The notes beneath the pieces were generated by a model. That model was given only the letters and a program-made list of their open reading frames with translations. It had not been told where the DNA came from and did not search any database. Of a stretch of DNA of 29,450 nt, positions 3,636 through 29,450 are shown in pieces (the stretch's first letter is position 1; every line of letters starts with the position of its first letter). Made by a program: the position numbers and the translations under genes. Origin of the DNA: Centruroides sculpturatus (Eukaryota); contig NW_019384981.1 of NCBI RefSeq assembly GCF_000671375.1, forward strand, positions 110,966 through 140,415. The letters run 5' to 3'.

Positions 3636-6146
3636 CTTAAAATTAATACATTTTATTATTAATGTTAAATTAATAAAAAAAGTAATAAAACAGAGATATT
3701 CTAAACCAAATTCTAAAAACCAATATTCTAGAAGATTAGTAGAACAATCGTACAGACCAAATAATCTCATGTATTATCAAAAAACATCCTTTAATTCTAC
3801 AAAATCATATCTAGTTATAATTGCTATATATTTTAATTTCACTCTTCATACTCCTTTTTTATCAATTATATGTCAAATAAATGTAATTTAATAAATAAAA
3901 TATTTATCAGTAGATGATGCAAGTAAAATGAATTTTATCTTTAATTTCATTTTATCTTAACGATATCTTATAGAGTCATTAATATTTGAAAACAGTTGAG
4001 ATTTACATTTATATATATTATTAAAAAAAAAAAATGTTCATACAGAAATCACTAGAATGCTAGCTACTCATACATCTGATTATCAAAAAGACATCATACA
4101 TGCCAAACAACAGAATTAGGTGTATTATATCAAGTTCCTTTGAGCCCATTTGACATGCTTTGAAATTGTTACTTGTATGCAGGAACTCCAAAATAGTACA
4201 CATTTAGGAAACTTCATATTTTAAAACAATCACAATCATTTGACAGCGAGTCTTTTCAACCATTGGACCACTCTTATTAAACTTTTCAAGTAAATTGGAT
4301 TTGTATGATTTTTGCTAGAGCATTTTTCCCAACAATGGACTAATTACACTGGATTAATCACAGAACAGAATGATGCCAAGACATGTAATTTGCAGATTAA
4401 TTCTATGTATTTTACTGATTTTTCTATGATTTGTAAGCATATTTATACACTAGTAATTTCATAATAAAAATCTTGCAACTTATATAGAATGTAGGTGTGT
4501 GAGGGATGTTTCAGATGGGTATTTTGTAAATTCTATTAGAGTATATAGGTACTATAAATACATTATGATTTCATCAATTTTTCTGGAGGTTATATTGAAT
4601 TGTACAAATTTTCATTCAAGTTTTATGCTCTGTTTAAACTGATCTTGTTTGATGAAGTTTTGTCACATGTGTGTACATGTGAGGTTTTTATTATGAAATT
4701 ACTAGTATCTATACATATTCCTACAAATCCTAAAAAAGGATCTATGCATTAAGACTGAAGATGAACCTGTCATGTCCAAAATATAATTTGTAAAGTAAAT
4801 ACACAGAATTACTCTGCAAATTACGCGTCTTGAGGTCATTCTGTTCAGTGTTTAATCCAGTGTGATAAGTCCATCTTTGGGAAAAGTGAGCTAGCACAAA
4901 ATGTAATACAAAACAAGACAACAGACAAAAAGTGATCAGAATAATAAATTTGGTTTGTTCACAATATAGCAAATATAAAATTTTATATACATATTTTTAT
5001 ATTGTTTTAATTATTTTAAATTTAAAATTGTTATTCTAAATGCATGTTCCAAAAAAAATCTAACATCTTTTGTATTTACATCCCGATGCTCTTACTCCAT
5101 TTTTGTTCTAGTTGATTGAAGATGATAACTCAATGAAAAGTTGTAAAATTATAGTGATAATATTTAAGTGTATTCAATAATTTTTAACACCATAAGACAG
5201 TTAAACATACTTTAACTAATATTTTGGAATGTGGTATTTCATATCATTCATTTTACAATATTCCTTTTTTATAATTTTATAATATATAAAAATATAAAAT
5301 TTTATAATTTAATACAATCAAACCTCTGAATAACATCCACTGATGAAAACACAAAAAATGTCCATTATTAGACATTTGACTGTATTAAATTGATTTATAG
5401 ATTAAAAATAAACATTAAATTCAGAATTAATTTTGAAAGTAACTTCAAACATAAAAATTGTAAAATCAGTTAAAATGTTAAAATATATTCATAGATTGTT
5501 ATAAAAAGAACAGTAAATTTTATAATTATCAAATGTAGTTATAAATACATATTAATTTTTGAATATATATTAAAATTGATTGTTTTAAAGTTCTACATAA
5601 ATAAATATTTTTCATTAAAGTTATTTAAAGTTTTAATGAATCTAAAGATACAAGTGAATGTTGTCTCTCAATGAAAACAAATTATGAACAAGCAGAAAAC
5701 ATATTATTATTAACTAGATTACTGCAAACCATTTTTGAATCTGATTGAATATAATTACTTCACACAGTATAATATTACTTTTATATTCTTTAATGCTGTA
5801 TAACAGAAATAAATCAACTTTAAGTTAAAGAAACTTTAACAATTGAAGATAAGCTGTGAGTAAATTTAATTAATATTTAATAACCAAATGTTAATAATCA
5901 TTATTTACTTAATAACTAATCATAAGGCAACTCATTCAATTTGCTTTCACATAAATTCATATCTTTATTGTAATTCATAGTAATAGAATGAACAATACTA
6001 CTCTGAATTAAAGTAAAATATCTTACCTAAATGATCAAAGTTAATAATTTAATTATTCTTTTCACAAATTTTAAAAATAACAAAATAAATCATAAATATT
6101 AAGATTAATAAATTCAGATTTTCTTTATGCCAAATATTATATTTAC

Positions 6147-7935: not shown

Positions 7936-8060
7936 GCTAATTTCTTTGATAAATAAATTATGATTTAAAAACAGTAGAGATTTTGTTTTTCATTTAAATC
8001 TTTTAAATTCTTGCAATTTATTTGTATGAATGACTTTTTTCAACATTAAGAGTTTATTTA

Positions 8061-8490
8061 CAGTGGAGCGTCATTTATCCGAAAGTCGGTTATCCGAAAA
8101 AATTCCAGTTGGCAAATTTAAATTTCCACTAGTGTTGTGGCACTGCAATCTTTGGCTATGTCTTGGGCTACTCAAATATTTTACGTTTTTCATACTAAAT
8201 TAACTTCTGAAGTATAATTTTTTATTGTTTTTATATTTTTCAATATATTTATTTTGTTTGTACAAAATAAAGAAATAATTTTTAATGATACAATAGCCAC
8301 GATTATTATTTTAAAAAGTTTACATTAGGCTTAACATCGACAAAAATTCAATGCAAAGTGACACGCAATGGAGAAAAATTTCAGGATGGGATAGGTTAAT
8401 ATATTTTTTCGTACATAATCGGTTATCCGAAAAATAAGTTATCCGAACAACCCCAGTCCCCGATTGATTCAGATAAACGACACTTTACGG
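8061..8490. mobile_element. MITE-like element with terminal inverted repeats, TTATCCGAA subterminal repeats, and possible TA target-site duplication
   Basis: The 5-prime end cagtggagcgtcatttatccgaaagtcggttatccgaaaa at 8061..8100 pairs with the reverse complement of 8455..8490 (ccgtaaagtgtcgtttatctgaatcaatcgg). The motif ttatccgaa or ttatctgaa recurs at 8076, 8090, 8422 and 8436, and inverted at 8470. Flanks are ttTA|cagtgg and acgg|TActt. No ORF. Confidence 0.4.
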
Positions 8491-8810
8491 TACTTTTGTA
8501 ATGAGATCATCTGGAATGGTAAAATATGGACACAATTACAACTGTTCAAGAAAAATTCAAATGACTTAATCTGGATTAAATTTTTGAAATTTCCCGATAG
8601 TAGATGATACAAAATGATTTCCATTGTACACTGTGGATTTTTCCATATTAGAGATTAGTGAAATATTATTACTATTATTAACATATTTAGAACAGTCCTA
8701 CAGAAAAGAAAATATTCAAAAAAAGCAAAAAAAAAAAATATTGCATGAATTTCAACTAAACATTTAACAAAAACTTCAATACAATTTGTAAACTTTAAAA
8801 GCAGATCAAC

Positions 8811-10125: not shown

Positions 10126-10739
10126 ATTTTATTTATTTATTTCATTAAATTTACATGAAAAGTCTGGATAGACATTTGATTTCTGCCCCCTACAAAAACG
10201 TACATCATAAAAACAAACAAAACAAGAAAAATAAATAAAATAAAAAAAAACAGGTAACAAATCTTAAAAAAGATACAGAGCTTTTTTACATTTCAATTTA
10301 AAATCAGGGAGGTCAAGATGTAAAAATTCATCAAAATTATTAAGATTTTGCAATATACAGTAGAAGAAAGATTGTTGAGATAGATTTAGATGATAAAAAG
10401 GAGTAAAAACGTAAATAAAGGAGTAAAGTTTTCTTGATGGAATTTGGAGTGAAAGCCAATCTTGATAAATAAGACCATTAAAATATTTGTAACATATTAA
10501 CCAATCAAAATATTTAATTCTCTCAAAGAAAGATGGGAAGCCCCGGCAAATTCTAGCAATATTAAAGTCAACAGTGAAAATCAGATTACACATTTTGTTA
10601 AACGTAAAAAGGGAAGGTGCAGCCATTGACCAAATTGGCAGTCCATAATCAATGCAAGATTGAAAATTAGCATTAAAAATCATCCACAATGCTGTTTTAT
10701 TAAAGACGGGCTTATAAAATCACCATAAAATTCCATGTC

Positions 10740-10965
10740 AGATAGCCAGGGATCAATATGATTTTTGAAAGTAATTTTTAATTGAAGTTATTAACTTTAG
10801 TCCTGACTGGAAGTTCATACATAAATAAATCAGGGCCCATAGTCCTTAGCTTTTCATATCTGATTTTGATTTTCATCTATCTAACTTTGTTCTCAAGATT
10901 AAGAGGATGGACAGAGAGACATGAGTGGAATGTGTAGGACTGAAATTTGAAAAATTTCAGACAAA
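10740..10965 (+). repeat. Interspersed repeat family A, copy 2 (5-prime degraded)
   Basis: Shares cttagcttttcatatctgattttgattttcatctatctaactttgttctcaagattaag...gactgaaatttgaaaaatt with the copies at 17255, 20025 and 25605. Confidence 0.6.
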
Positions 10966-15661: not shown

Positions 15662-16900
15662 ATTACAGTTAGAAATTGAACTGTAGCAGCCTGTTGATAT
15701 ATGCTTGAAATTGTGATGTACTCTGTTATGTAAAACTTATACAAATGTTTGAGTTCCACACATGTTGGTCACATGACAGCACAGATAAGAGATTTCAGGC
15801 AAATATGTGCATGCAGTCAGTTTTCGTTGGATGTGAAATTTGAATGTGGAGGAGTGAAGTTACAATAATAAAATTCTGGACATGTCTTCTAGGCAACATT
15901 TAGATGATTTTACTCATGAAAGAACAATCGGAAAGCTGGAAGAAGGGCAAAAAATAACAGATGTTGTGCATGAATTTAACATTGCACACAGTATCATTTC
16001 TAGACTATGGACAGCATTTCAAACTAGCGGAATGTGCAGCAGGCACAATGAGGAGGTCGTCCTAGCAGTACAACACCCCAAGAAGATCGGTATATTGTTC
16101 TTTCAGCAAAAAGGAATTGACGTAGCACAGCTGGTGAACTGGCAAGTCATTTACAGGGAGCCACAGGAACTAAGATATCCCATAAAACTGTTGCAAGACA
16201 TTTGTGAAAGAAATGGACTATACGCCTGAAGATCTGTTGTATGTGTCCCACTCGAAAGTCCACCGAAGTGCCCATTTGCAATGGTGCCGTCTGCATTGCA
16301 ATTGGACTAATGACAACTGGGCTATCATGTTCTTCTCAGATGAGAGTAGATCCAGTCTATCATCTGATTCTAGATGGCAACCGATGGGAACCAAGAGTGG
16401 AAGGAGAGTGAGAAAGATTGTTCTAGTCTGTCACAAGACAAGGTTCAACTCCATTGATTTACTCAGTACAAGTGGACATGATTATCGACAAAGACTGAGA
16501 TATTACTGTATCTAACAATTCTTAGATATTATTATAAATCTCACCCATAAAAATTAATTCACAGAATTCTATATTTTCTATTTACTTTGTTAATAACTTT
16601 GTTTGCATCAGCAGCACATCTTTTTCATTATTTAAATTGTTTTATTTTGCAAAGCATAAAATTATACAATATCTTCTTAAAAAAGCACGTTTAATAATCA
16701 ATTTTTATAAAACTTTAATTTATGCTTTTTCAAGAAAATCATTACTGTTTTTATTTGAACTAGAGGATACCTTATATGCAGGACTTTGAAGAACTTTTTG
16801 AAAAAGAAAAAACAGGGCAAAAATAAGAATATTAAGGATTCTTAATTATTTTCTAAATGCTTCTAAAAATTAAGGGTTTTTAAGGCATGTACAAACTGTA
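15662..16900 (+). mobile_element. Tc1-like DNA transposon fossil (frameshifted transposase, TACAGTT termini) inside the intron between PARP4 exons 9 and 8
   Basis: ORFs 15882..16229 and 16204..16515 carry Tc1 hallmarks. Frame 1 reads LDDFTHERTIGKLEEGQKITDV...ISRLWTAFQTSG. A shifted frame reads GGRPSSTTPQEDRYIVLSAKRN*RSTAGELAS (compare Tc1 GRPRATTPREDRYIVLSAKRNRRSTAQLVN), then TGTKISHKTVARHL, then LQWCRLHCNWTNDNWAIMFFSDESRSSLSSDSRWQ (compare RARLQWCREHRNWTVDQW..VLFSDESRF). The 5-prime end is TACAGTTAGAAATTG at 15664. Its inverted counterpart is caaactgta at 16892..16900, which reverse-complements to TACAGTTTG. The element is too short for an intact Tc1, so it carries internal deletions. Confidence 0.6.
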
Positions 16901-17254: not shown

Positions 17255-17475
17255 TTGTGACATTAAAAATTGCTGCATGGCATTGTGACAATGATCTTTT
17301 AATTTTAAAAAGTCATGCAACTTCCAGAAGTTAATCAGAGTCTCAAGCCCTAAGCTTTCCATATCTGGTTTCGATTTTCATCTATCAAACTCCATTCTCA
17401 AGATTAACAAACGACAGACAGACAGACAACAGTGGAAATGTATATATCTGCAATTTGAAAATTATAGAATAAAAA
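17255..17475 (+). repeat. Interspersed repeat family A, copy 3
   Basis: Reads cattgtgacaatg...cctaagctttccatatctggtttcgattttcatctatcaaactccattctcaagattaacaaacgacagacagacagacaacagtggaaatgtatatatctgcaatttgaaaattatag followed by an A-rich tail. Contains a (GACA)n core. Confidence 0.7.
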
Positions 17476-18222: not shown

Positions 18223-18294
18223 CTAAAATTTTAAACCACTTTAATAAGTACACGTAAAATTATTAAGTTAAAATTCAATTTTTTATATCCTCAC

Positions 18295-18471
18295 TTGACA
18301 TAGGTCTTTTTTTTGTGCAACTAATTGTTTAGACTTGATAGTTTGACTGTATTCTGGCACATGCGGTAAAATTGAATAAAATTCCTTACTAAGTTTCTCT
18401 AGTAATTCTTCTGAATCAAATTCATTTAACATTGAGTGAATTTGGAGTAAAATACTTTCTGCTTCATCAAT
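18295..18471 (-). CDS. PARP4: PARP4-like exon 7 (PARP helical domain)
   Basis: Acceptor tgtatag|ATT, donor CAA|gtgagg, 59 codons. Translation IDEAESILLQIHSMLNEFDSEELLEKLSKEFYSILPHVPEYSQTIKSKQLVAQKKDLCQ matches human ...TEFYRLIPHKGTMPKEV...LAKKADLCQ. Confidence 0.8.
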
Positions 18472-20024: not shown

Positions 20025-20400
20025 GATCAATTATTTATTATGACATTGTCACAATGCCAGACTGCAATTTTTAATTTATTTCATTTAAAATATATGCTCT
20101 CCACCTCAAATTAGTGGAGGCTTGCTCATAAACATCATACTTTTCCTTTAACAACAGTCATGTTGATCATCTATCTAACACCTTTCAGTAGAAAATTTTT
20201 GAATTGAAATAATGTGACTTCCAGTTTGCATCAACAGTTCATATATAGTTAATCAGGGTGTCCTGCCCCAAAGTTTCCATATTTGGTCTTGTCTTTCCTC
20301 TATCTAACTCTATTCTCGAGATTAAGGAAAGACAGATGCACAGACAAATGACAGTGGAAATTTATAGGTTTACAATTTTTTCAAATTCAGCCCAGTTATA
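20025..20400 (+). repeat. Interspersed repeat family A, copy 4 (longest)
   Basis: Reads ttatgacattgtcacaatgccagactgcaattttt...aagtttccatatttggtcttgtctttcctctatctaactctattctcgagattaaggaaagacagatgcacagacaaatgacagtggaaatttataggtttacaatttttt. Confidence 0.7.
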
Positions 20401-20709
20401 TAAATATAAATATAATTACTAATTATCATATCTAATACAATGTTTATCTTTCTTATAAATTGTTATAAGTTAAATTATTTATTTATTCACTAACAAATGA
20501 AACAACAATGAGCTTAGTAACAAAACTGACAAAACTAAAAAAGCAATTAAAGAAGTATTTCCATATGGACTTGTGTAATAAATTCTTATTTATAGTTTAT
20601 GTGTTACCATTTATTATTTTACCTTATTATTATTAACTATAATTTGATTTTTATTTATGATTTTTTAAATAAAATGGAAAAATTAAACATTTATAGTTGA
20701 AATGCATAC

Positions 20710-20877
20710 TTTTTGAAATGCAAGAGATCCAACTTCGGGATGTAGAATTTCCATAACTTCAATCATGTAATGAGGTGGTCCACATTTTGCAAAATAAAGC
20801 TGACTAAATACTGACAAAGCTCTTTCAGCTGTTTCAAGGAAATAACAAACTTTCTTACTTTCAACAATACTTTCATC
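20710..20877 (-). CDS. PARP4: PARP4-like exon 5
   Basis: Acceptor tttttcag|GAT, donor AAA|gtatgc, 56 codons. Translation DESIVESKKVCYFLETAERALSVFSQLYFAKCGPPHYMIEVMEILHPEVGSLAFQK. Collinear with the human region between BRCT and the helical domain. Confidence 0.65.
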
Positions 20878-20948
20878 CTGAAAAACATCATCATTATTTT
20901 AATTTCAAATAATAATGGCATTTTATATTCAAATAAATTCATCATTAC

Positions 20949-21095: not shown

Positions 21096-21240
21096 CTTAA
21101 AAAGAATTGAATTTAAAGTAATTAAAATGTAAATAAAAATAATAATACATTTATCATATAAATCAAAAGTAGAATTTTATTAAATATATTAAAAATCAAC
21201 AATTAAACAGTATTGCTCTGTAAAGATTTCTGATATTCAC

Positions 21241-21356
21241 CTTCAAAACCACAGGTTTAACAAGTTCATATCCAAGTAACTCTTCATATGGATATGTTGG
21301 AAGTGAATTCAAAAATACTTGAACAGTTGTAGGCTGTTTTTGCACATCCGAAGACA
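21241..21356 (-). CDS. PARP4: PARP4-like exon 3
   Basis: Acceptor ttttcag|TG supplies the 2 nt that complete the codon from exon 2. Translation SSDVQKQPTTVQVFLNSLPTYPYEELLGYELVKPVVLK (human NYDPYKPLDITPPP region). Donor AAG|gtgaat. Confidence 0.7.
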
Positions 21357-21528
21357 CTGAAAACCAACAGATAAGAATAAAAATATTTCCTGTACAATAT
21401 CAAATTTTAAATATTTGGCATAATCAATAATAAATGTGTGTAGTCAATTAAAATGTTATATATAATCATACTACCTACAATTAAAAAAAATGTGTATTAC
21501 CTCAAACCAGCTAATAAAAATATGATTA

Positions 21529-22444
21529 TGTGAGGGACGAACAGACCCACAATAAAGTATTATTTTAAATTTTAATTATTGGAAACTTTAATCGGTTAAA
21601 TTCGAACGTTTTATCGAGTTAGGCTAAAAGCCATAAAAATTATTTCCCACGGAGTTTGTTCCTTGTTGAGTCGTATCAAGTTAGTCAGGGATGTGTCACC
21701 AGGAACTTTTGAGGGAGAAGACATATTGGACGTGCGACCGTTAAAGGCCATCACCTGACCTCATGGAAAAAACCCAAGAGGAAAAAAAAAGAGAAAAGAA
21801 AACGATCCCGAGGTCAGTCGTCATCCGAAGTCCCTCTACAAAAGTCATCCTCCAGGATTAAAACCGTGACCCAGGATTAAAACCCGTGACCCAGGATAAA
21901 ACCCGTGACCCAGGATAAAACCCGTGATCCAGGATAAAACCCGTGCACCAAAATCCCGAAATAACACCTTGACAGAAGTAACACCGTGTCTCCTTAAGAA
22001 TCTCACCCCACTTCCGTGCTTCCACACCTCCGAGATCCAATTAACGGACAAGAACTAGTGGAAAGACCATTTCAGAGGAGTCAAGAGTGTCATCATACTA
22101 TAGATCTGCGACCTAGGAAAAAGAAAGGTATTTATCAACCCGCGATTCGGTTGTAAACTCTCTCTCTCGAACGGAATAGTATAATTAAGTCCGCTAATAT
22201 GCCCGATATCTCTGTATTTTCTTTGTTTATTATTAAAATGGAATTTTTGTCAGAACATATGGAGTCCGAGTGAGTCACTTCCTCGTCTCTCTCCTCACCT
22301 CTACTCCGAATCCAAGCGCTCACACGCTACCGCTCGCGAATCTTTAGACATAACGTCGCGATTTCCGAGTCCCCCAGAGACTCGGTGGTGTCAGATTCAG
22401 GTCTCCTGACAGGGCGCCAAAGAGGTGCCGACCCTACGGTCACA
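21529..22444. mobile_element. Putative solo LTR (GC- and CpG-rich) inserted in PARP4 intron 2
   Basis: A roughly 916 bp block begins TGTGAGGGACG and ends CGGTCACA (terminal inverted TGTGA/TCACA, TG...CA). It is flanked by direct ATTA (21525..21528 and 22445..22448; ATTAT if the element is taken from 21530). GC content is far above the surrounding sequence, with about 49 CpG by my count against near-absence elsewhere. It has internal tandem repeats and a TATAAT-like box near 22180. No ORF is present and no second LTR copy occurs in the window. Confidence 0.55.
21852..21950. repeat. Tandem repeat, 5 copies of a 19-20 bp unit CCAGGAT(T)AAAAC(C)CGTGAC, inside the putative LTR
   Basis: Direct reading gives ccaggattaaaaccgtgac, ccaggattaaaacccgtgac, ccaggataaaacccgtgac, ccaggataaaacccgtgat, ccaggataaaacccgtgca. 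Each unit carries a CpG. Confidence 0.85.
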
Positions 22445-23724
22445 ATTATATCAAGAATTTTTTTTACTACTTTAATACAATCCTGTTAAACAACAAATGC
22501 AATAAAATAAATAATAAAATTCAATGTATTCTGATAATAAATATCTGGTAATACACCATATATACTGTATTTTATAATGTGCCAAATTAATATTTAAAAT
22601 CCATAACTATATAGGTATGTGCTGCTTAACAAATGTAATTGTCAAATATCAATATAGAATATAAGAATATGAAAAAACAGCACTATACACTAACAATTTA
22701 TACATTATTAGTATACAGTGCTACAATTATTACATGTAAAAACAAGAGGCACACAAAACTGATAGAAGGTATATGTTAAGTACAGAATTTTTTAATATGA
22801 TCTATTTATATCATGATGTTATTCTTTGGATTATAGAAACATGTAATGAAAATATTTCTGCAATTACATTTATTATATATAATACATCAGATATAAGTAT
22901 GCTGATAAATGCATATCGTCATCAGAAATAAATTCTTAAATTCCTTTGCAATATAACTTAGATGCTAAGCAAACCTGAAGGTTCACTCAATCATAGTTTA
23001 CCTAACAAAAAATTATTCAATGTTATTTTTATCAGATTTCAGAGGAATTTAAAGAACAAACTGAAATAATACATAACAATGATGTTTTAATTCATTTTTA
23101 AACTTATTTAGCTGTATTGAATTTCATCCAAATAATAATTAATTTAATGCATTTATAACAAAATTTCCTGTAAGAAATTCAAACAACAATTATCAATTTA
23201 CTTTGTATTGTTTAATTCCATGATTACTGATAACTCACAGATTTGAGTAAGATAAAAATATCTGAAAATAAATAACTTATTTTTATTGTTTATTTTTATC
23301 AATCTTATTTTAAGAGTTACACAAAACATAAAACTGAATTACAAGTTCAATATATAGAATAAATATTTAAATATTTTAAATTCTAATCTACTTTTCATAT
23401 ATAGTTGAATCTGTATCTCAAATATGTTTACTTAAAAAGCTCTTTATCTTGAAATTTATTTTCCCCCTGTATTTTCAGTCTAAATTCAATATATTTTCCA
23501 TGTTTATTGCAAATAATTTTCTCACAAAACCTCTATATCTCAAATTACAGATGAATTATCAATTACAACCTCAAAGCTAAGCAACTACATTATGGTATCA
23601 TAAATTGTAGTTGAGAAACATCTCTTGCAATATAGCAAATAGTTATAATTAACACTGCTTTTCTTTGATTGGCTATGACTTTGGTTTAGTTTATTTGTTT
23701 ATGGCCACGTGATACATGAGCAAT

Positions 23725-25337: not shown

Positions 25338-25530
25338 CGAAAATTTTTCCTTTACGAAAGCCATTCATTTGTGTTTCATTTGAAATCAGGAAGGATTTGG
25401 AATCAAGTAGCTTCTTGTTTTTTAAACATGCATTAATATAATCTTCTTTTACCATAGGAATTCCATATTTCTTTGCTGTCTTTTGTTTCATTGACGAAGT
25501 ATTTGATTCTAAACAAATTACAAATTTAGT
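25338..25530 (-). CDS. PARP4: PARP4-like exon 2 (BRCT C-terminal part)
   Basis: Acceptor tttttttttcag|ACT, phase 0. Translation TKFVICLESNTSSMKQKTAKKYGIPMVKEDYINACLKNKKLLDSKSFLISNETQMNGFRKGKIF matches human THIILDNADVLS...FIWKSIREKRLLD. Donor TTCG|gtaaat, leaving 1 nt. Confidence 0.75.
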
Positions 25531-26761: not shown

Positions 26762-29285
26762 AAATTGTTTTTTTATGGAAATGTCTTCTGCAAGTCTTAA
26801 AATGTTACCTTATCATTTAGACTGCTGGATGTCTTGCTAAAAAGCATTGAAACTTTAATTAAAATCACCTGATACATAAAAAATTAGAAATTGAAACGGA
26901 ATCATAGCTCAGTAATCTTGTACAGTTCTCAATCAATTACACTAAATACAATATTGTCAAATAAATGGCAATGAAAATTAGTACAATCAAAACAAGATGA
27001 ACGAACATGGATAAATGAAATGTACTCTGTATGTTAACCGTTCTGCTTTTTTTACCAAATATAAAAATGATAAAATGTTAAGGAGTCTTTGAATATTTTA
27101 ATCAAGATTAAACATCTTTCAAAACATTCTTCCTCTTCATCAGGTCACTAATTCAAATAATGAACAGTTTCCATTTTAAAAATATTCTCATAGCACTATT
27201 TGAAATATATTACATTACTGAGACTTATGTTTTGAGTTTAAAATATAATCTCTTATGAAATAACCTATTAAAATAAATGTGCAATATATAATATAAAAAA
27301 AAAATAAAAAAAACACCTATTATATAAAATTAACACCTTGTAAATCATTAGATTTTAAAGTAATAAGAAAGTAAAATACAGGTAGCCTTCATACAACACG
27401 GTTTTGCTTTAACATGGTTAGAAAATTCGGAATATCCCACATACAATGCAACAACCGGTTTTGCTTTAACACAGTTTTGGAACTCCTCAGTACAAAATTT
27501 CACAATTTTTAAGTGTAAATTTCATTATTTGATTTTTTTTATTCACACAAGCATGCATGTTGTCTCAAATTTGTCCATGAATTTTAGAATATTGAAATTT
27601 TCAATTCGTTTTGTGCCTTTTATCAGGTTCACTATAATAAAGACTGATAGTACAATTTTTTATTCCTTGTCCTAACTTTCCTATCAATCAATGTCATTGT
27701 TGTTGCTTTCAGACTTTAGCCCTCAAGCCACTGTGTTTTCTTTTTATAGATTAATCTTCGTATTTAGTAGTTTATTTAAACATTTAACTGTAGATAAGCA
27801 ATCATTCATAAAATGACAAATGAAATACAATGATAACTCAGTACTTGGACAATTCAGCATTCAAACACAAATTTTGGAAAAAAGTTGCTTGGTAAGCGAC
27901 TGAACAAAGACAACCCGGTAGAACAAATTTTCTATTAATAACATATTTTTATTTCATCACCCATAAAAATTTTTTATGATGATAATAAAATGTATGAAAA
28001 TTTTGCAGATACTTCTGATCAAGATCAACAAAAAAGCTGAGATGACAACGATAATTTGTAAAAAGAAAGTACTCGTTTAACTAAAATTAATATTAACATG
28101 TCATACAGTATTTTTAATTGTGATTATTAGTAAATTATTGACTGGAAATAAATTATTAATTGCGTTAATAAACACATTTCTCTTAATTATGAAAAAGAAT
28201 AGTATACTTTTGCTAACTTCTGGAATGTAACCCTATGTTTTGCATTAGTTCTTTGTTTCGTGTAGCACAGATTCACATAACATGACACTTTTTCGGAACA
28301 TATCTACTGTGTTATATGAGGGATACCTGTAATTTCTTTTCTACGGAAACATGTTTATGCTAATTTTTCTATGTACTATGACTAATTACTGACATTTATC
28401 ATTTCACAAACACAATATTCAGCACATAATAACAATTTAACAGATGTTAGAAGATATTGAAAAACTTTTATTTTATGATGAACTAGCCAATGTACCATCA
28501 ATGTTCAGGTTAAGAGACTTGAACAAGTAAGAGTTGTGAAGAAAATAAAGCAATGAAAATAGTAATCACATTTTTATGTAACTTGTACAGACTAGTTTCA
28601 TCAATTTTACAGAAATATTCATAAAGATTAAAAAGTTCCTCTCAAATGATGATGAAAGTAATTCTTAATACAGCGATCTGTAACAAAACAATTTAAAGTG
28701 ATACACTTCAAGAGGCAATAATTGTATTTCAAAGAAATATTGAAAGCAGATTGAAAACAATATTAATAAAATTCTTTAAATACTTTCAAAACATTCGTGC
28801 ATCATTAGGTTTCAAGTGATAAATTTAATTTACTGATATTTGGTCAAAAGGACACCAATAAAATGATAACAACACTGCTTAGTTAGTTACACATCATTAT
28901 TCTGATCATGTGTTGTTAACAATAAAACAAAAATAATGAAAATTTGATATCAAGAAATAAAATAATTACTGTAAACAGCAGAAGTTATATAAATAATAAA
29001 AAACACAATAAAAATATTTTATAAAAATAATAAGAATTACTATTAATTAAGTTGTTAAAATCTGTTAAATTTAAACAGAGACAATTCATTACTTTTAGCA
29101 TCATGAAATCATCTGATTTTATATCATTATTTGATATCATCATATTTTTACAGAAAATTCTCTTTTATGCTTGTAATAAATTTATTTTTTTTAATTACTT
29201 GTACTTATAATGTATTAATTAGAACATTTATCATCATTCTAAACACTCAATTAATAACAATCTAATTATTAAGTTATAAACTTAC

Positions 29286-29450
29286 CTTTTTAGTAACCAT
29301 ATACGATACAATTCCCCCGTTATCAATGATTTTTCTCCTCAATTCTTGTTTCTCTTTCATTTTCATCGAGGGAGGCATATCTAAAACTATTTCATAGTTA
29401 CTAAATAATTTTCTTTCTATGTGTTTGCATAAAATTTCTTCTTGATTTGG
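29286..29450 (-). CDS. PARP4: PARP4-like exon 1 (partial, BRCT N-terminal part; continues beyond window end)
   Basis: Minus-strand translation PNQEEILCKHIERKLFSNYEIVLDMPPSMKMKEKQELRRKIIDNGGIVSYMVTKK aligns to human PARP4 N-terminus (KKKLQTDIKENGGKFSFSL). Donor AAG|gtaag at 29285. No in-frame stop up to window edge; start codon not located. Confidence 0.7.

Follow-up and report, generated by a model that had tools for sequence, protein, structure and literature searches.

A 916-bp block of foreign-looking DNA in an intron of a PARP4-like gene is probably the solo LTR of an LTR retrotransposon, an identity that we assign from its structure at this single locus of the window (the whole stretch of 29,450 nucleotides analysed here). 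The block has a base composition unlike that of its surroundings, exact ends and a target-site duplication; it has no coding capacity, and it lacks both a partner LTR and a gag-pol region. Its extent is as follows.

21529-22444, + strand (inferred): probable solo LTR, 916 bp, called from its composition, its boundaries, the lack of ORF homologues and of any RNA family, and the lack of another copy in the window

The gene that hosts the block is read from the minus strand. Peptides encoded on that strand are colinear with a compact PARP4-like gene on ENA contig ctg4455_242x_l (L001), with BRCT, PARP_reg, PARP, VIT and VWA domains. The joined peptides from 29277-29450 and 25338-25530 match Pfam BRCT with an E-value of 3.4e-10, and the block lies 2.9 kb from the second of these BRCT exons and 3.1 kb from the PARP_reg exon at 18286-18471. 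For the candidate “exon 3” at about 21199-21352 (minus strand), 177 bp from the block, no homologue was detected, and no homology was found for a further candidate exon at 20686-20898 (minus strand). Over the full query, the PARP4 exons of the window have matches of no more than 47% identity, in vertebrates, one rotifer and one bivalve, and identities of 62-70% to ENA contigs are confined to the VIT part. L001 and a second contig, ctg31820_243x_l (L002), are eukaryotic, come from metagenome assemblies and each carry a compact PARP4-like gene whose VIT and VWA share one ORF (500-553 aa) adjoining an actin fragment. Both loci have a GC content of about 36% and a CpG observed/expected ratio (O/E) of about 0.67, and their VIT part is 69-70% identical to the exons of the window.

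We compared the composition of the block with that of the rest of the window. The window as a whole is about 27% GC; the block is 44.3% GC and the 28.5 kb outside it 26.4%. Outside the block there are 121 CpG (O/E 0.24), and TpG and CpA are in excess (O/E 1.33 and 1.30, respectively), a combination of depletion and excess that is the signature of methyl-cytosine deamination. Inside the block there are 48 CpG (O/E 1.08), with TpG and CpA at 0.81 and 0.79. The sequence-only reading had described CpG as nearly absent across the window and had credited the block with about 49 CpG at a ratio near 1, and both statements are borne out by these counts. From the O/E of the host and the block's own content of C and G, about 10.9 CpG would be expected in the block, and the probability of finding 48 or more is about 1e-16. 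GpC is also unusual: 19 are observed in the block against 44.5 +/- 5.2 expected (z = -5; O/E 0.43). This odd depletion, unlike the host, where GpC O/E is 1.14, points to foreign sequence.

The boundaries of the block were located independently of the TG/CA rule, from the limits of the CpG cluster and from a two-change-point likelihood fit on G+C. The outermost CpG inside the block are at 21538 and 22437, and the nearest ones outside, at 21349 and 22917, are separated from the block by about 180 and 470 bp. On the right, the GC change point falls at 22443, which is 1 bp short of the CA terminus; on the left, it falls at 21646 because the initial ~120 bp of the block are AT-rich; this part holds 5 CpG and opens with a 23-mer of 57% GC, and is therefore part of the block. 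The left junction reads ...ATATGATTA followed by TGTGAGGGACG..., and the right junction ...CCTACGGTCACA followed by ATTATATC..., with these features at the ends:

21525-21528, no strand: left copy of the target-site duplication, ATTA, read directly; a 4-bp direct repeat for the end pair 21529/22444
21529-21533, + strand: 5' terminal inverted end TGTGA (TG terminus), read directly; the inverted repeat stops at 5 bp
22440-22444, + strand: 3' terminal inverted end TCACA (CA terminus), read directly, beside the GC change point at 22443
22445-22448, no strand: right copy of the target-site duplication, ATTA, or ATTAT to 22449 with a 1-nt ambiguity

Thus, the TG...CA termini with their 5-bp inverted ends and the flanking ATTA(T) direct repeats, all of which had been picked out in the earlier reading, are present. 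Counting the element's first T as part of the duplication makes it ATTAT instead of ATTA, and 4 bp is the length consistent with the TG...CA reading. When 20-bp windows were taken at random and in pairs from the sequence outside the block, 1.4% of the pairs held a TG...CA combination with a 4-bp duplication and 0.06% had the 5-bp inverted ends as well, figures to be read with the caveat that the duplication is just 4 bp long and AT-rich, within an AT-rich intron. A wider scan returned two alternative boundary pairs, 21580/22444 (ATTAT) and 21493/22495 (AATG), both of which fit the composition edges worse. The match between the ends and the composition edges, taken together with the low chance figures, led us to conclude that the block is a discrete piece of foreign DNA that was integrated with a 4-bp target duplication.

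The same observations bear on the idea that the block evolved in the host as an unmethylated CpG island, serving as a nested or alternative promoter or as an enhancer, and that TG...CA and ATTA are coincidental. A 0.9-kb block that has an O/E of 1.08 in a CpG-depleted gene body and also contains TATA-like and Inr/DPE-like motifs (positions below) is what this idea would lead one to expect. Measured against the usual definition of a CpG island, the block lies above the O/E threshold (at least 0.6 over at least 200 bp; here 1.08 over 916 bp) and below the classical GC content of at least 50%, at 44.3%, though the host background is 26%. It shares with LTR-derived and with vertebrate-type CpG-island promoters an O/E of about 1 over about 0.9 kb, a TATA-like box and a position within a gene, and it differs from the vertebrate type in GC content (44% versus a classical 50% or more). 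A host origin is, however, difficult to reconcile with edges so abrupt that the right GC change point comes within 1 bp of the CA terminus, with a terminal structure expected by chance at 0.06%, or with a GpC O/E of 0.43 (z = -5) against 1.14 in the host. Moreover, the corresponding region of L001 and L002, two other, very distant, compact PARP4-like loci, has no similarity to the block. We consider a host-evolved island very unlikely.

What kind of foreign DNA, then, is the block? Its longest ORF is 68 aa. Its concatenated six-frame translation, searched against 5.8 billion proteins in a comparison that could also have picked up ORFs called spuriously on other copies of the LTR, has no homologue; exact-product look-ups of three ORFs of the window gave no match either. 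Rfam returned nothing for the block at gathering thresholds or at E<=1 (no 7SL, no 5S) and ARAGORN found no tRNA, and an RNA gene or SINE is ruled out by these empty searches. A poly(A) tail is absent at both ends, which rules out a processed retrocopy. Plasmid and phage BLAST with the block gave no match, and exact-pattern scans for its ends in bacterial and archaeal genomes and in viral contigs were empty, so that an origin from a plasmid, a phage or a prokaryote is also ruled out. Metagenome contigs, scanned for the exact 3' end and for a 5' end made degenerate at CpG, gave nothing either. Most of these results count against the view that the block is some other foreign insert or an artefact, be it a processed retrocopy or SINE, DNA of organellar, viral or contaminating bacterial origin, or a chimera of the assembly. 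The composition of the block, foreign to the surrounding intron, is what such a view has in its favour. Against it stand the missing tail, the empty tRNA and Rfam searches (7SL and 5S included, with Rfam relaxed to E<=1), the lack of a protein homologue in any frame and of plasmid and phage matches, and the scans of bacterial and archaeal genomes and of viral contigs, in which the ends had no exact match; the target-site duplication argues for real integration. We hold this view to be highly improbable.

A truncated full-length retroelement was likewise excluded. The 29-kb window contains no second copy of the block, and a Pfam search of stop-to-stop ORFs on both strands from 17.5 to 26.5 kb found no gag, pol, RT or integrase domain, the only matches being to the PARP_reg and BRCT domains of the host. 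The sequences flanking the block, ATTATATCAAG and AAAATATGATTA, are AT-rich intron sequence and resemble neither a PBS nor a PPT.

Another candidate is a non-autonomous, MITE-like cut-and-paste DNA transposon of a superfamily that makes 4-bp duplications, such as Sola or Ginger. Ginger termini read TGT...ACA, and both Ginger and Sola make 4-bp duplications. The block shares these traits, being a discrete, non-coding insertion with a 4-bp duplication and TGT..ACA-type ends, and the same gene contains another short TIR element with intact CpG, at 8059-8492. Elements of the two superfamilies are reportedly equipped with TIRs of tens of bp, and their autonomous copies have a DDE transposase. In contrast, the inverted ends of the block match over 5 bp only, short of the 10 bp or more expected of a Sola- or Ginger-type MITE. 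Local alignment of its first 150 bp with the reverse complement of its last 150 bp scores 9, no better than shuffles (8.3 +/- 1.3), and on these grounds a MITE or other transposon with long TIRs was rejected. The interior of the block is, in addition, asymmetric and promoter-like. A MITE-like origin therefore appears unlikely to us.

We return to the solo LTR, with which all of these properties agree. The block has TG...CA termini, a short inverted repeat, a duplication within the 4-6 bp range, a non-coding body within the 0.1-5 kb range and no partner; structurally, a solo LTR is defined by just such a set, with a non-coding body of under a kilobase to about a kilobase. Intronic solo LTRs are among the commonest features of animal genomes. 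TG...CA, the short inverted end, the 4-6 bp duplication and the 0.1-5 kb size are shared with solo LTRs of Ty3/gypsy, BEL/Pao and Ty1/copia elements, superfamilies among which a lone LTR such as this one cannot be told apart. As in other animal solo LTRs, the block is non-coding; it is also intronic, probably antisense to its host gene, and devoid of an internal region, and it may share their layout, since its repeat array precedes a TATA-like box and a candidate poly(A) signal. The internal features are:

21852-21945, + strand: tandem array of a 19-bp unit, CCAGGATAAAACCCGTGAC, x4.9 (Tandem Repeats Finder score 158, 93% matches)
22180-22185, + strand: TATA-like motif TATAAT, candidate core promoter, a motif match only
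22232-22237, + strand: ATTAAA, candidate polyadenylation signal that follows the TATA-like motif at a distance of 52 nt, a motif match only

Both the tandem repeat array and the TATA-like box that had been claimed for the block were thus recovered, the latter as a motif match only. CpG is retained in 5/5 copies of the array, which would be enhancer-like if it is located in U3. When both strands of the block were scanned, TATAAT was the sole TATA-type match. ATTAAA is followed by a T-rich stretch, and its placement would give a short R and a U5 of about 190 bp, with the U3/R/U5 borders being guesses. Read on the + strand, the succession of array, TATAAT, ATTAAA and U5 would make a plausible U3-R-U5 layout. 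From the same order of array, TATAAT and ATTAAA on the + strand, we infer that the sense strand of the LTR is probably the + strand, antisense to PARP4. On the minus strand of the block, the only AATAAA precedes any TATA-like motif. With 286 A to 224 T, the + strand is A-rich, and it also carries an alternative transcription start, in which an Inr-like TCAGTC (21814) is paired with a DPE-like AGTCA at +28 (21843).

The following series of events would account for these features. An LTR retrotransposon would have inserted into the intron-like stretch that separates the second BRCT exon of the PARP4-like gene from the PARP regulatory-domain exon, and the integrase of the element would have duplicated the 4-bp target ATTA; the empty site before insertion, with a single ATTA, would have read ...ATATGATTATATCAAG... 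/ ...AAAATATGATTATATCAAGAA.... Recombination between the two LTRs may later have deleted the gag-pol interior, leaving one LTR. That LTR would have retained its own base composition, 44% GC with CpG at expectation, either because it arrived too recently for methylation-driven decay or because it escaped germline methylation.

The probable orientation bears on the host gene. The sequence-only reading had placed the BRCT exons upstream of the block, as the Pfam match and the colinearity with the gene on L001 confirm, and had suggested that an LTR-derived promoter might start a truncated PARP4 isoform. Its claim of a solo LTR is well supported structurally, in that all the structural tests run fit it. 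The isoform is not favoured, the order of array, TATA-like motif and poly(A) signal probably placing the sense strand antisense to PARP4 and the proposed exon 3 having no detected homologue. With the LTR in this orientation, its promoter would yield an antisense transcript rather than a truncated PARP4, and the block would differ in this respect from LTR-derived alternative promoters, since it could not serve as the start of a PARP4 isoform. Antisense is the orientation in which intronic LTRs are usually best tolerated.

We then considered the intact CpG of the block. The signs of CpG decay, an excess of TpG and CpA, are absent from it, and the gene body around it is presumably methylated. A second insertion in the same gene body offers a comparison:

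15882-16515 (wider extent 15750-16520), + strand: frameshifted Tc1/mariner-type transposase relic, called from matches to Tc1/Tcb transposases

This relic (15750-16520) has a GC content of 41% and a CpG O/E of 0.38, with TpG at 1.43 and CpA at 1.60. Its best matches are Tc1/Tcb transposases in TE annotations of the spider Trichonephila clavipes (43-48% identity, E-values down to 5e-38), which may reflect annotation bias; Pfam gave no match for it at E<=0.01. That the relic has decayed at a GC content similar to that of the block indicates that GC-rich insertions in this gene body lose CpG over time. In a spider, the LTR retrotransposons that sit within gene bodies carry methylation as the gene itself does (PMC6673714), which supports a CpG clock if the present host behaves alike, and one spider retrotransposon family, CopiaMBD, targets methylated gene bodies (PMC6673714). 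The block recalls the CopiaMBD retrotransposons known from spiders and from centipedes (de Mendoza et al. 2019, PMC6673714) in that it is an undecayed LTR-like insertion in a strongly CpG-depleted gene body; nothing ties it to that family, however, it has no coding part, and Copia elements typically make 5-bp duplications, compared with 4 bp in the block. The block is either young or kept unmethylated as an active promoter, two states that sequence alone does not separate. A more specific proposal, that the block is unmethylated in the germline and acts as an antisense promoter toward the PARP4 BRCT exon, or that it comes from a family that targets methylated gene bodies (cf. CopiaMBD), has in our view only a slim chance of being correct.

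Several other repeats were seen in the window. A second CpG-rich patch lies at 8059-8492, with 15 CpG, an O/E of 1.46, a GC content of only 30% and no CpG decay. It looks like a MITE of about 430 bp. Its inverted ends (TACAGTGGAGCGTCATTTATCCGAA / TTCAGATAAACGACACTTTACGGTA), 25 bp long, are imperfect, and TA stands at either extremity, as in Tc1/mariner elements. An interspersed family of short repeats, 67-81% identical, occupies several introns, with copies at 10820-10902, 17325-17407 and 20243-20325 and further pairs at 10046-10119/25760-25833 and 17413-17475/25847-25909. A (GACA)n-like stretch follows these repeats, and they have a SINE- or MITE-like look. A 151-aa open frame at 10267-10719 (minus strand) resembles by eye the C-terminal region of the reverse-transcriptase ORF of a non-LTR (CR1/L2-type) element; it had no Pfam match and no homologue in a protein search. 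Finally, an inverted repeat of 104 nt, whose two arms (4309-4412 and 4797-4900) are 84% complementary and separated by 384 nt, may be another TIR element or a foldback.

A solo LTR in a PARP4 intron is an ordinary feature and matters little by itself. Of modest use is the clean local case of CpG content as an insertion clock that this gene body, presumably methylated, provides, with O/E values of 1.08 for the LTR, 0.38 for the Tc1-like relic and 0.24 for the host. Equally modest is a second use of the block, which flags a retrotransposon family that was possibly active recently in an AT-rich metazoan genome. Should the block prove free of methylation and give rise to a transcript, it would become a candidate for antisense regulation of PARP4.
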